From a virus (lineage: Duplodnaviria; Caudoviricetes): a stretch of 64,000 bases of DNA. Made by a program: the position numbers and the translations under genes. The stretch lies in IMG/VR virus record IMGVR_UViG_3300042522_001179, positions 183-64,182 of that record; one strand, written 5' to 3'. The notes beneath the pieces were generated by a model. The model did no database searches. It was not told the DNA's origin and saw nothing but the letters and a program-made list of their open reading frames with translations. Positions within the stretch are counted from its first letter, which is position 1. Each line of letters opens with the position of its first letter. This document shows, piece by piece, positions 6,477 to 55,088 of this stretch.

Positions 6477-7130
6477 ATGGCAAAAAATAAACCTGACAAA
6501 AATATTTATGAAAGCATTCTTAATGCAGGGCAAAACACTGGGCCAGGAGTAAACCTATCTAGTGATCAATTTGAACAGTTATTAAACCGATCCTCGCCAT
6601 ACGGAGGTAGTTTTGGTACTGGCTCAAGCGCAGGCGCTGGTTCAATGCTTGGAATCCAAGCGGGTAGAAAAGCACTACAAGACATCACAAAAGGATACGG
6701 ACGGTTTGGAAAACAAGATGCAGCAGATTTGTTTGGAACCTTAGAGTCTCAAATTAGACGCGGTGCCATTTCCACTGATTTAGCAGCAGAAGAATATTTA
6801 AATGCCGCAAGATTTGGCAACGTTAAAAACGCTTTTAGCAAAGCGGAAAAACTTGCCACAATGGATCAAGGCTTTGTTGATCCTTCTAAGTATCAAAGGT
6901 ATCAACCCTTTATGCAGTTAAATGCCCAACAGCTTTTGGGACGCAACCTGAGTGAAGGCGAGTTAAATGCTTATACAGAAGCATTCCGTGGCATGGGTAT
7001 TTCCAAGCCTGCAGATGTTTCTGCTGCTTTTGGTAATATGCTTTTGAGTACTCCAGAAGCACGCAGTCGTGAAGTAGTTGTGAGTAAAGGGCTATTCGAC
7101 AGAACGCCTAATTTGAATCTTGCAATGTGA
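6477..7130 (+). CDS. hypothetical protein (217 aa)
   Basis: ATG ORF with TAAAAT box at 6450. Confidence 0.7.
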   Translation: MAKNKPDKNIYESILNAGQNTGPGVNLSSDQFEQLLNRSSPYGGSFGTGSSAGAGSMLGIQAGRKALQDITKGYGRFGKQDAADLFGTLESQIRRGAISTDLAAEEYLNAARFGNVKNAFSKAEKLATMDQGFVDPSKYQRYQPFMQLNAQQLLGRNLSEGELNAYTEAFRGMGISKPADVSAAFGNMLLSTPEARSREVVVSKGLFDRTPNLNLAM

Positions 7131-23946: not shown

Positions 23947-24315
23947 ATGTTTTGCAACGAGCACGAGCCCCTTGCTTTGCTAGTTGAATTAACGCCAAAA
24001 CTTGCCAAGAAACGTTTTCGAGATGAAATTTATAAATCCTGGAACCATTGCTGTGGTTACTGTGGAGAGCCGGCAACAAGCTTAGATCATATAGTGCCCC
24101 GGTTTAAATCTGGATCTTCTAATCGCTATAATCTTTTGCCTGCTTGCAGGCGGTGTAACACCAACAAAGCCAGTGAAAAAATGCAAGAATGGTATTTAAA
24201 GCAGTCTTTTTTTGATGCCTTAAAACTTGAAAAAATTACCAACTGGATGCAGCAAGATACACTAGAATTACTACCCTGGAAGCCCAGGCTTGACGATAAA
24301 AATTTTGCTGCGTAA
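23947..24315 (+). CDS. HNH endonuclease
   Basis: CGYCG...LDHIVPRFKSG...NLLPACRRCNTNK. Confidence 0.9.
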   Translation: MFCNEHEPLALLVELTPKLAKKRFRDEIYKSWNHCCGYCGEPATSLDHIVPRFKSGSSNRYNLLPACRRCNTNKASEKMQEWYLKQSFFDALKLEKITNWMQQDTLELLPWKPRLDDKNFAA

Positions 24316-53464: not shown

Positions 53465-53663
53465 CAAAGCAATTCAATCTGGATATACCAAGCGTTACCT
53501 GCCAGAGAAAGCATGGGCCTCATTGTCTAAAGAAGAACGTGAGGAGACTGACCGTAAGAAACGCGCTGGCAGTAGAGAAGGAAAACAATTTGTACCCAAC
53601 ACTGAAACAGCAAAGAAAGCTGGTAAAGCAGCCCGTGCATCCAAACGTTATAAAGATAAATAA
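53457..53663 (+). CDS. basic protein, C-terminal half of the same family
   Basis: RYLPEKAWASLS.EE..ETDRKKR.GSREGKQFVPNT. Confidence 0.75.
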   Translation: MADKAIQSGYTKRYLPEKAWASLSKEEREETDRKKRAGSREGKQFVPNTETAKKAGKAARASKRYKDK

Positions 53664-53687
53664 CTCACGTATACTTAATAAAGATTC

Positions 53688-53891
53688 GTGATCATCATGG
53701 AAAAGAAAAAAGCTATTCCCCCCAAGAAAGCTGTGCCTCCCGCAAAAGGTAAAGCCGCTCCTCCCGTGAAAGGCAAGCCTGCTCCCCCTGTCAAAGGCAA
53801 AGGTGGCGCAACTGATAAGCAAGCGGAAGCCCGCGAAAAGTTTAAAGAGATGATCGCCAAGAAAAAAGCGGACGCTGCCAAAAAGAAATAA
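53688..53891 (+). CDS. Lys/Pro/Ala-rich small protein
   Basis: PPxKGK repeats; TATACT box at 53670. Confidence 0.65.
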   Translation: MIIMEKKKAIPPKKAVPPAKGKAAPPVKGKPAPPVKGKGGATDKQAEAREKFKEMIAKKKADAAKKK

Positions 53892-53901
53892 GGTATCGCG
53901 C

Positions 53902-53997
53902 TATACTTTCAGTGCTCAATACACACGTCTCGTCCCGTAGGTATTGGCGGTAAGTAGTTAGTCTCAGATCTCGGCTTGAGCAACCGAGATTTTTTTG
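53902..53997 (+). ncRNA. putative small RNA with its own -10 box and terminator
   Basis: TATACT 53902; CAATAC/GTATTG hairpin; terminator ATCTCGG-cttgagcaa-CCGAGAT followed by a T-run. Confidence 0.45.
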
Positions 53998-54008
53998 TTA
54001 TAATTCTG

Positions 54009-54255
54009 AGTGATAGAGGCCAGGTCCCTGTGCGCGTTAGGCACATAGCCTAGAAGGCGACACACCTGGTCCATCACACAACCCATACTGCTTTGTTGGT
54101 ATGGCGCAGCGCATGGACCGGAAATTTCCAGTCGTTGCGTTTGCGTACAACACCCCTCATGCCTAGCTTGATAACGAGGACGGCTTTACACCGGGCGCAC
54201 GGGCTTGCAGGCATCCTCACTCAGTTATCAATGACGCACAAACCGAGGGGTCACT
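54009..54255 (+). ncRNA. large structured, pseudoknotted ncRNA of unknown family
   Basis: TATAAT at 53999; about eight complementary stems covering most of the interval; no credible ORF. Confidence 0.65.
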
Positions 54256-54326
54256 CAACCGGTAGTCCAGTGGCAGGACACCCCGACAAGGGAGTTAGAT
54301 AGTTGGTTCGATTCCAACGCGGTTGC
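54256..54326 (+). tRNA. tRNA-like element 1 (degenerate anticodon arm)
   Basis: Acceptor CAACCG/CGGTTG, U8A9, D arm GTCC-AGTGGCA-GGAC, T arm GTTGG-TTCGATT-CCAAC; anticodon arm only about 4 bp with a 5-nt GACAA loop. Confidence 0.7.
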
Positions 54327-54327
54327 T

Positions 54328-54402
54328 CGCCTGGTCCGAGACAATTGGATAGTACGGCTGCTGCGCTGCAGGGCGATGTAGGTTCGAATCCTACCCAGGT
54401 GC
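54328..54402 (+). tRNA. tRNA-like element 2 (degenerate D and anticodon arms)
   Basis: Acceptor CGCCTGG/CCAGGTG, T arm GTAGG-TTCGAAT-CCTAC, D-loop-like AATTGGATA, CTGC-tgcgct-GCAG hairpin. Confidence 0.65.
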
Positions 54403-54431
54403 TTTAGAGTGAGCAGACTCAAGCAAATCAA

Positions 54432-55088
54432 ATGAGTTACCTCAATCACAACCTGCCTACGTTTACGTGTTACATCCGAAACGAGTTCCTATACAACCAC
54501 AAACAAGGCCATGGCGAGGTGACGTTGTGCGATGTCCACTCAGTGGCCTCTCTGGAGAAGCGCGTCCCTTTATTTGAAGTCTTCCTGGAGAATGGTGTCA
54601 ACTGGACAAGGCGTCCAATCCACGCTCTCTGCTGGAAGCCAGGTGCCCCTAAGCCCGAATTAAATGAGTGCATGTGGTGGGATTGTTTCTCTCCGTATAT
54701 CGATGTGCAGGTTAGGTCACGCCTCTCAAATTTACGTGCGCAGCTGATCAACTTCAAAGGGGAGAAGAAAGGCGGCATCTACATGTTCACCCTTGACTGG
54801 TCATGGGAATCTAAATCAACTCTTAATACAAACTTCAGCGAAACACCTGAGCACAAGTGTGCGCATTTCTTCCGGATGGATGATGGCAACTTCTATGCAT
54901 ATCCCAATAACCGAGTCATTTGGTACGACGACGCCTGGCTTAAGAACCGTATTGAAAAAAACCCTGGCTACGAGATTGACTTGACTGAGTACAGCGTAGA
55001 GAACTCACGGATGATTGAGACGTCCAACCATTTTATATACGAGACAACAGCCACAGGTGAACAGGATTTACAGTTAGTTTTGGAATAG
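54432..55088 (+). CDS. conserved phage hypothetical protein (218 aa)
   Basis: MSYLNHNLP...EHKCAH...GNFYAYPNNRV; aromatic-rich globular ORF. Confidence 0.75.
   Translation: MSYLNHNLPTFTCYIRNEFLYNHKQGHGEVTLCDVHSVASLEKRVPLFEVFLENGVNWTRRPIHALCWKPGAPKPELNECMWWDCFSPYIDVQVRSRLSNLRAQLINFKGEKKGGIYMFTLDWSWESKSTLNTNFSETPEHKCAHFFRMDDGNFYAYPNNRVIWYDDAWLKNRIEKNPGYEIDLTEYSVENSRMIETSNHFIYETTATGEQDLQLVLE

Follow-up and report, generated by a model that had tools for sequence, protein, structure and literature searches.

A cyanophage island of small RNA modules with an orphan abiF-type RNA adjoining a tRNA-like element

A modular small-RNA island behind a phage promoter

The DNA analysed here is a stretch of 64,000 nucleotides (nt), hereinafter the window, that makes up nearly the whole of the 64,182-base IMG/VR virus record IMGVR_UViG_3300042522_001179 (estimated completeness 81%); the element in question occupies positions 54,009 to 54,255. 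These 247 nt form the leader of an island of small non-coding RNAs (ncRNAs) driven by a promoter, in which four hairpin modules, A to D, are followed by two tRNA-like elements, TL1 and TL2. The last module, D, is identified below, from its sequence and pairing, as an RNA of the abiF antitoxin type, for which the phage has no detectable toxin gene. The nearest named relative is Synechococcus phage S-EIVl (87.6% identity over 54149-54325 of the window), and the source is an S-EIVl-like freshwater cyanophage; the stretch is present in 14 DNA runs, of which 13 bear the label lake-water metagenome and one the label biofilm metagenome. Read in the 5' to 3' direction, the locus consists of the end of a Lys/Ala/Pro-rich open reading frame (ORF), a hairpin with a T-run, a promoter, the 247 nt, TL1, TL2, an ORF of 218 amino acids (aa) and a small HNH gene. 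The features of the island are the following.

53967..53996, + strand: terminator-like hairpin with a T-run that closes the upstream gene, read from the sequence; its loop contains the -35 element
53976..54004, + strand: sigma-70-type promoter, TTGAGC-17-TATAAT with a TG extension, 10 of 12 consensus matches
54010..54077, + strand: module A, a hairpin composed of GAUAGAGG, a helix of 6-8 bp, CYCUG, a variable inner hairpin, YAC, the helix and UCCAUC
54082..54105, + strand: module B, a small hairpin CCAUAC...GUAUGG with a UGCUYUG loop, from the minimum free energy (MFE) fold
54105..54146, + strand: module C, a hairpin with the conserved core CYGGAAAUKUYCRG and a variable outer helix
54150..54255, + strand: module D, abiF-type RNA (RF03085), 38.2 bits and E 4.4e-8 with covariance model R1; outer stem 54153-54158/54245-54250, inner stem 54160-54162/54236-54238, single-stranded CAAACC 54239-54244, 3' flank UCACU 54251-54255
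54168..54231, + strand: 64-nt hairpin inserted in the abiF terminal loop of module D, with helices TTGATAAC/GTTATCAA, GAGGA/TCCTC and CCG/CGG
54256..54326, + strand: TL1, a tRNA-like element with acceptor, D and T arms and an 'anticodon' stem of 3 bp with the 5-nt loop GACAA
54328..54403, + strand: TL2, a tRNA-like module with acceptor CGCCTGG/CCAGGTG and T arm GTAGG-TTCGAAT-CCTAC, known in 11 distinct copies

The 247 nt are a real, structured and conserved non-coding sequence behind a good promoter. A first-pass annotation, made from the letters of the window, had placed a TATAAT box at 53999-54004, which is borne out by the TTGAGC hexamer 17 nt upstream, the TG extension and the match to the consensus; the promoter scan found one site against 0.4 expected, and transcription is predicted to start at about 54010-54012. 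The hairpin at 53967-53996 was passed over by the terminator scan because its loop is 9 nt long and the scan allows at most 8. The hairpin-plus-promoter layout recurs in the printed contexts of relatives, and so does the overlap of the two signals (53967-54004), in which the -35 hexamer of the RNA promoter sits inside the loop of the terminator-like hairpin.

The same annotation had read the segment as one large pseudoknotted, structural or catalytic RNA of an unrecognised family. That the segment is structured stands (MFE -94.8 kcal/mol, z -3.84; one of 200 shuffles equally good), and so do several of the proposed helices. The helix GGCCAGGT/ACCTGGTC lies where it had been placed and covaries in 20 phage copies (97.7% of the cells paired, 5 compensatory pairs, none of 500 shuffles as high); ACCCCTC/GAGGGGT is real and corresponds to the covarying abiF stems of module D; and TTGATAAC/GTTATCAA is present and closes a hairpin that shows compensatory changes in the alignment with S-EIVl. 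The elements that would tie these helices into a single molecule did not hold up. The MFE fold consists of four separate domains with zero long-range pairs. The pseudoknot helix ATGCCT/AGGCAT shows zero compensatory change and is equalled by 500 of 500 shuffles; the 5' strand of this helix also falls on the inner stem of the abiF fold, which does covary (U-A in the window, A-U in S-EIVl). Inside module A, the proposed helices TGTGC/GCACA and GCCT/AGGC (70.3% paired) are no better than shuffles, and an alternative module A hairpin, TAGGC/GCCTA, fits better (95.5% paired, reached by 6 of 500 shuffles). The proposed closure of the whole by AGTGA/TCACT is absent from the MFE fold and lost in relatives with different 5' ends; TCACT is instead the flank of the host AbiF RNAs, which carry it without an AGTGA-type partner.

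The 17-nt signature of TL1 retrieved 79 viral stretches, some of them coincidental matches in GC-rich coding sequence, and yielded 30 distinct true TL1 copies. Among the contexts of the TL1 copies, matches to pieces of the window numbered 10 for A, 3 for B/C, 6 for D, 64 for TL1 and 5 for TL2, each count including the window's own copy (locus L001). In the printed contexts, relatives share the terminator-promoter unit and then differ in the combination of modules: the promoter directly precedes TL1, with no module in between, in L069, L048 and L022; a short A is followed by another module, E, and then D in L009 and L031; A, B, C and D are joined by extra modules at the C/D joint in L047; and A and B are followed by other modules and a minimal D in L011 and L050. 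In the RNA contigs X15 and X16, 107 additional letters stand precisely at the boundary of modules C and D (54144/54148). Because different pieces match different subsets of relatives, the contexts differ and X15 and X16 have their insert at the C/D joint, the 247 nt are a cassette chain and not one fold: four independent hairpin modules that are shuffled, swapped or omitted in related phages.

As motifs, modules A, B and C are genuine, conserved and specific to phages; they may be stabilisers or further decoys of the kind proposed below for D. A search anchored on the conserved flanks of module A alone recovered 29 instances with 21 distinct sequences, of which 19 form 6 of 6 pairs of the helix, one forms 5 of 6 and one is a false positive. 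Module A also occurs in tRNA clusters of T4-like cyanophages, such as S-RIM8, and belongs to no Rfam family; in 401 genomes of the likely host family, its pattern gave 8 matches against 4 for the control, with the helix in none, which we read as chance. By inspection, copies of module B with the compensatory change CCCUAC/GUAGGG are present in L047, L050, L011 and L025, and copies of module C with different yet pairing outer helices in L047, L008, L339, L302, L352, L037, L285, L291 and L314. Module E is not part of the window. It begins with AAGUCC and forms two hairpins, of which one has covarying stems and a loop of UUGAUCA (L009, positions 6633-6727, - strand), recurs in L031, L023, L032, L051, L008, L064 and L047, and has a similar piece in the S-PM2 locus (L004, ~1420-1470); it is common to S-EIVl-like and T4-like cyanophages and belongs to no Rfam family.

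An orphan abiF-type RNA next to tRNA-type folds

The AbiF RNA motif is a type III antitoxin that binds and neutralises the Abi_2/AbiF HEPN RNase in cis as well as in trans (bioRxiv 2025.04.15.648962), blocking the HEPN active site with single-stranded bulge nucleotides (PMC12737573, PMC13064643). At the gathering score, Rfam has no match in the window, and at E <= 10 it returns noise together with a weak tRNA-Sec-like score for TL1. No match to GOLLD, ROOL or manA, the large phage ncRNAs named in the first-pass annotation, was found in the window, and in 15 relatives only tRNA and abiF families were matched. To this extent the segment itself remains outside Rfam, but its relatives do not: the scan of the 15 relatives placed RF03085 immediately before TL1 in L011, L050, L025 and L038 at 49.7-53.1 bits (gathering score, 37 bits), so the description of the RNA as belonging to no known family fails for module D.

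In the window, module D has the nested hairpin of the family, with a CCCCUC/GAGGGG outer stem, one unpaired A and a UGC/GCA inner stem. In an alignment of 21 sequences (17 phage and 4 cyanobacterial copies), the abiF stems are paired in 95.8% of the cells, with compensatory changes in 7 of 9 pairs, a result reached by none of 500 shuffles. The single-stranded CAAAYC (CAAACC in the window) is present as well, and its CAAA is invariant in all 21 sequences. The departure is in the conserved 11-nt loop CUCUCAACGAU, which is retained in L011, L050, L025 and L038 and is replaced in the window by CUAGCU, the 64-nt hairpin and AUGAC. The S-EIVl hairpin has GAGAA/TTCTC and CTGT/ACAG, which are compensatory with respect to the window, other hairpins occupy the same site in L064, L023 and L039 (a CCGG hairpin in L064), and RNAs of the host family also break the loop with a small hairpin. 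Module D of S-EIVl is 86.9% identical to that of the window.

We built two covariance models of this RNA. Model R1, derived from 12 host and 9 phage copies, none of them of the window type, gave a single match on both strands of the 64-kb window, at 54150-54255. Model R2, derived from the 12 host RNAs alone, detects 14 copies from phages, among them the orthologue in S-EIVl (32.8 bits). By sequence and covariation, then, module D is best described as an abiF-type RNA with a 64-nt loop insert.

The 3' end of module D coincides exactly with the start, at 54256, of the tRNA-like element, as the first-pass annotation had observed. TL1 has a conserved cloverleaf (27 distinct copies; 93.8% paired, 8 compensatory pairs, C1-G72 invariant), but it is not a tRNA in the usual sense: in Rfam it scores highest against tRNA-Sec, with 16.9 bits where the threshold is 47, it has no 5-bp anticodon stem with a 7-nt loop, and ARAGORN reports it as 'tRNA-???' with a 2-nt anticodon. 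TL1 cannot decode because its 'anticodon' arm has only 3 bp and a GACAA loop. It also occurs inside the tRNA clusters of T4-like cyanophages, such as S-PM2 and S-RIM8, and its signature has no match in 201 host-family genomes. TL2, which ARAGORN does not call, is found after TL1, directly after the abiF RNA (L316, L341) or alone behind its own promoter-like site.

Adjacency to a tRNA-type fold is a constant feature of the phage abiF copies. The motif stops 5-6 nt short of TL1 in 15 S-EIVl-like loci, among them that of the window, and in five T4-like loci it lies between tRNA genes, adjoining tRNA-Arg(TCT) in four and tRNA-Ala in one; it abuts a tRNA or tRNA-like element in 20 of the 20 phage copies examined in this first set. 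The canonical 20-nt abiF core then retrieved at least 120 viral stretches, of which 116 are new loci. ARAGORN finds a tRNA within 25 nt downstream in 65 of the 116, namely tRNA-Arg(TCT) in 45 and Leu, Ile, Met, Lys, Tyr, Gln, Val or Thr tRNAs or TL1 in the others. A descriptor of an acceptor stem plus T arm finds such an element starting 0-12 nt downstream (mostly 4-9) in 83 of the 114 non-truncated loci; these elements include intron-bearing tRNA-Arg genes, minihelices and TL2. Among the 31 loci negative with the descriptor, ARAGORN calls a tRNA in L293, L302, L317 and L339, and L288 is tRNA-like by eye. Folds of the tRNA type are cleaved by RNase P at their 5' end, and such a cut would leave the RNA with a defined 3' terminus a few bases past its outer stem. 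Since the 3' end adjoins a tRNA-like fold, release by RNase P, proposed in the first-pass annotation, is plausible; the part of that proposal that did not survive is the single pseudoknotted or catalytic RNA that was to be released.

The elements downstream of the abiF RNA are themselves varied. In L254, L255, L257, L278, L313, L314, L331 and L337, the abiF core is followed by a tRNA-Arg-like sequence with an anticodon loop seemingly interrupted by ~200 nt; their length of ~276 nt from acceptor to acceptor strand suggests intron-bearing tRNA-Arg(TCT) genes. Minihelices of 47-65 nt that consist of an acceptor stem and a T arm only directly follow the abiF RNA in L322 and L335, as if the part recognised by RNase P had alone been retained. 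A recurrent non-canonical tRNA-like element (GGGAGGCUAAGACAGCGCUAGG ... T arm), not called by ARAGORN, stands after the abiF RNA in L239, L246, L271, L288, L310 and L323.

An RNA of this family is expected upstream of an abiF (Abi_2) gene; module D is followed by a tRNA-like element instead. Searches for Abi_2 (PF07751) at E <= 1 returned no match in the window genome, nor in any of five related RNA-bearing phage genomes (four at least 92% complete, the fifth the complete S-EIVl genome), and the PADLOC AbiF/AbiD models match none of the 60 window ORFs of at least 110 aa. Among the abiF-core loci, Abi_2 was found in 2 of 26 viral records without a tRNA neighbour and in none of 50 further records, three of which repeat members of the first 26; L293, L302, L317, L339 and L288 were grouped with the tRNA-fused set for the search of the 50. 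In total, 2 of 73 distinct records tested, out of the 116, encode Abi_2, and none of the 9 that are at least 90% complete. The phage abiF copy is thus an orphan with no detectable toxin gene.

A candidate decoy of host AbiF

The toxin is present in the likely host group. Among 401 sampled cyanobacterial genomes, gathered via a cyanobacterial 16S primer, 31 contain Abi_2 above the cut-off, as do 18 of 401 genomes from the family of a Vulcanococcus limneticus genome (picocyanobacteria). RF03085 lies upstream of Abi_2 in 3 of the 12 best loci from the phylum, with visible variants in four more, and a descriptor search finds a variant RNA upstream of Abi_2 in 9 of the 14 best loci from the family. 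The RNA of the host family reads ACACCC..A GGC ..CCGG hairpin.. GCC CAAACA GGGGGG TCACTC; its counterpart in module D starts with ACACCCC, has CAAACC, ends with GAGGGG-TCACT and likewise contains a loop hairpin. Given the shared flanks, bulge and loop hairpin, the phage RNAs resemble the antitoxin subtype of the likely host group. An antitoxin-like copy in a phage that itself lacks a detectable toxin gene, alongside a host family in which the toxin does occur, is the configuration of a mimic.

With moderate confidence, we propose that module D is an orphan abiF antitoxin decoy with a 3' end cut by RNase P that would keep host AbiF silent. The proposal draws on the modular anatomy of the island, the abiF homology, the lack of a detectable toxin gene, the presence in the host family of AbiF with a like RNA and the abutment on tRNA-type folds. 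In the proposed sequence of events, the phage would transcribe the island from its own sigma-70-type promoter, and RNase P would cut at the tRNA-like 5' end, freeing the leader with the abiF module at its 3' terminus. Type III systems are set off once host transcription ceases and their labile antitoxin RNA is lost, as in ToxIN (PMC13728456). The freed phage RNA could occupy host AbiF after host transcription is shut off and the host antitoxin decays, and because the antitoxin would now be supplied by the phage, the toxin would stay bound and abortive infection would not be triggered.

Metatranscriptomes give a hint of expression. Part of the stretch is present in six RNA runs, and four runs from four studies were mapped onto the window. 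Contigs of 163-365 nt cover 54023-54283; in two studies a contig starts cleanly, with no loose end, at 54023 and at 54030 respectively, and one stops at 54247, where adapter sequence follows. The flanking ORFs (53600-53800 and 54338-54800) have no RNA contig in the four runs, which is not evidence that these genes are silent. Because the contigs are assembled, they are a weak hint only of a discrete, abundant RNA. Contig X16 departs from the window after 54264, inside TL1, with an A-rich tail that could reflect tailing of a decay intermediate or an assembly artefact.

Several observations weigh against the decoy proposal. The window copy scores below the Rfam gathering score, without a match even at E <= 10, and its CUCUCAACGAU loop is replaced. 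Model R2 misses this copy: default filters yield no match, and a run without filters yields only a 17-nt fragment at 10.1 bits; we attribute the miss to the long insert, because switching the filters off also loses the S-EIVl copy. On the host side, none of 151 host-family genomes has an RF03085 match at the gathering score; a single weak match adjoins an Abi_2 gene. The family is only the likely host group, and AbiF is present in less than 5% of the sampled genomes. Many of the viral records are fragmentary (the five T4-like ones are 4-41% complete), so that a missing Abi_2 is weak evidence there. Finally, the RNA evidence consists of assembled contigs, which do not show true ends or strand, and DNA carry-over is possible.

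The alternative that survives best, although we regard it as unlikely, is a passive leader, in which the hairpins would space or stabilise a tRNA-like transcript and the abiF-like piece would be a host-derived relic, inert in trans. Modules are freely gained and lost between close relatives, some phages have none before TL1, and the window copy, without the conserved loop, fails the Rfam score, all of which a passive leader would accommodate. It would not readily account for the compensatory changes that maintain pairing or for the single-stranded CAAA, which is the same in the hosts and in two phage groups that are unrelated; and the canonical core recurs letter-for-letter in more than 116 viral contigs, whereas a relic would decay.

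Less probable still is that module D is the antitoxin of the phage's own divergent toxin, the two forming a complete RNA-protein pair for superinfection exclusion or addiction. Full AbiF systems do exist in prophages, C. difficile being an example (bioRxiv 2025.04.15.648962), the two Abi_2-positive records among the 26 without a tRNA neighbour could be of this kind, and many ORFs of the window belong to no family. However, neither the Abi_2 searches of the window and its five relatives nor the PADLOC models found such a toxin, the gene 3' of the RNA varies between relatives and is often on the opposite strand, and the T4-like motif lies between tRNA genes.

We consider it improbable that the abiF-like fold recruits host AbiF or another RNase to process the phage tRNA-type precursor, or gates its maturation, a role that would be in keeping with the cleavage and processing by AbiF of its own ncRNA (PMC12737573). 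The position of the motif, always 5' of a tRNA-type element and in 45 of 65 cases of tRNA-Arg(TCT), would fit such a role, but the partners are many different tRNAs and tRNA-like elements. AbiF would be a poor general processing factor, because most sampled hosts are without it, and RNase P alone is enough for 5' maturation. A single large pseudoknotted RNA of an undescribed family, acting with the 218-aa protein or the HNH protein, is largely refuted and least probable of all: the low folding energy, the lack of an Rfam match in the window and the tRNA-like elements directly 3' had spoken for it, but its domains occur separately and in other orders, long-range MFE pairing and covariation of the pseudoknot and inner helices are lacking, module D falls in a known family, and a tie to the 218-aa ORF or the small HNH gene finds no support: that ORF, which matches phrog_3704 (labelled 'ferredoxin'), comes after the RNA in just 3 of the 17 printed relatives.

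Cultures exist of both S-EIVl and its Synechococcus host, and AbiF toxicity can be assayed in E. coli, so that the decoy hypothesis is open to direct test. A broader reading, which we offer tentatively and hold to be possible but doubtful, is that phage tRNA clusters and tRNA-like islands are RNA counter-defence arsenals, with decoys parked directly 5' of tRNA-type folds and freed by host RNase P; modules A, B, C and E, TL1 and TL2 would then be decoys for undiscovered RNA-binding defence effectors. On this reading every conserved module would mark a host system yet to be discovered, and the abiF copy would be the first that can be named.

Two other ORFs of the window deserve mention. A small ORF at 53688-53891 (+ strand) stops just before the island and has a Lys/Ala/Pro-rich repetitive tail (KGKPAPPVKGK-like); it matches no Pfam or PHROG family, and in relatives, S-EIVl among them, an ORF like it lies ahead of the island. 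A 122-aa ORF at 23947-24315 (+ strand) matches HNH-type PADLOC models (PDC-M01B, PtuB; best E 4.6e-10) and is probably a homing-type HNH nuclease, not a defence gene.

Comparison with known systems

The abiF RNA family and the principle of antitoxin mimicry are already known, and the AbiF RNA antitoxin was characterised only in 2025. Module D shares with the abiF RNA (RF03085; the AbiFr or RCd22-type antitoxin) the 6-bp outer stem, the unpaired A, the 3-bp inner stem, the CAAAYC and the UCACU-like tail. It differs in that no abiF gene is found downstream or anywhere in the phage, the 11-nt loop is swapped for the 64-nt hairpin, with which the window copy falls below the Rfam score, and the RNA is fused to a tRNA-like element and not to a terminator or a toxin ORF. 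In the literature searched, as far as its text was available, no cyanophage or orphan phage abiF RNA, fusion to a tRNA fold or long-insert variant was found; a prior description is possible. AbiF has been proposed as the ancestor of Cas13 (PMC12737573, PMC13064643), and the orphan phage copies, if they act as proposed, would be a natural RNA inhibitor of AbiF.

The closest precedent is phage PhiTE, which escapes ToxIN by means of a pseudo-ToxI RNA (PMC3475682). There, too, a phage carries a copy of a host type III antitoxin without the toxin, and the copy is read as a means of escape from abortive infection. The toxin of that system, however, is ToxN and not the HEPN protein AbiF, and ToxI consists of tandem repeats that are cut by the toxin, whereas module D is a single unit that lies beside a tRNA-type element, with RNase P as the probable nuclease. 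If the decoy hypothesis is correct, the phage abiF RNAs would be a second, far more widespread case of antitoxin-RNA mimicry after PhiTE and ToxIN. AbiF itself is inhibited by the cos-site hairpin of phage sk1 (Rince et al. 2000, via PMC13064643 and PMC12184496), a phage RNA or DNA hairpin with the effect that we suggest for module D. The sk1 hairpin is unlike the AbiF ncRNA (PMC13064643), whereas the cyanophage module resembles it.

The arrangement of the island has parallels outside toxin-antitoxin systems. The constant tRNA-type adjacency suggests a simple rule by which a defined small RNA could be made without a dedicated nuclease. Stable non-tRNA RNAs lie in phage tRNA clusters (T4 species 1 and 2), and RNase P makes the 3' end of MALAT1 at the mascRNA; in both, as proposed for module D, a small RNA is freed by tRNA-processing enzymes at a neighbouring tRNA or tRNA-like fold. 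These RNAs have other functions or none known, and they have no antitoxin module.

Finally, the same adjacency contributes to a view of phage tRNA clusters as anti-defence islands. The tRNA-Lys of T5 counters PARIS, and phage tRNA-Tyr counters Septu and Retron-Eco7 (PMC13728456, a review with 0 occurrences of AbiF). In those cases the clusters serve as counter-defence arsenals, as they would in this one; those are decoding tRNAs that replace cleaved host ones, whereas the cyanophage island combines the non-decoding TL1 with a copy of an antitoxin.

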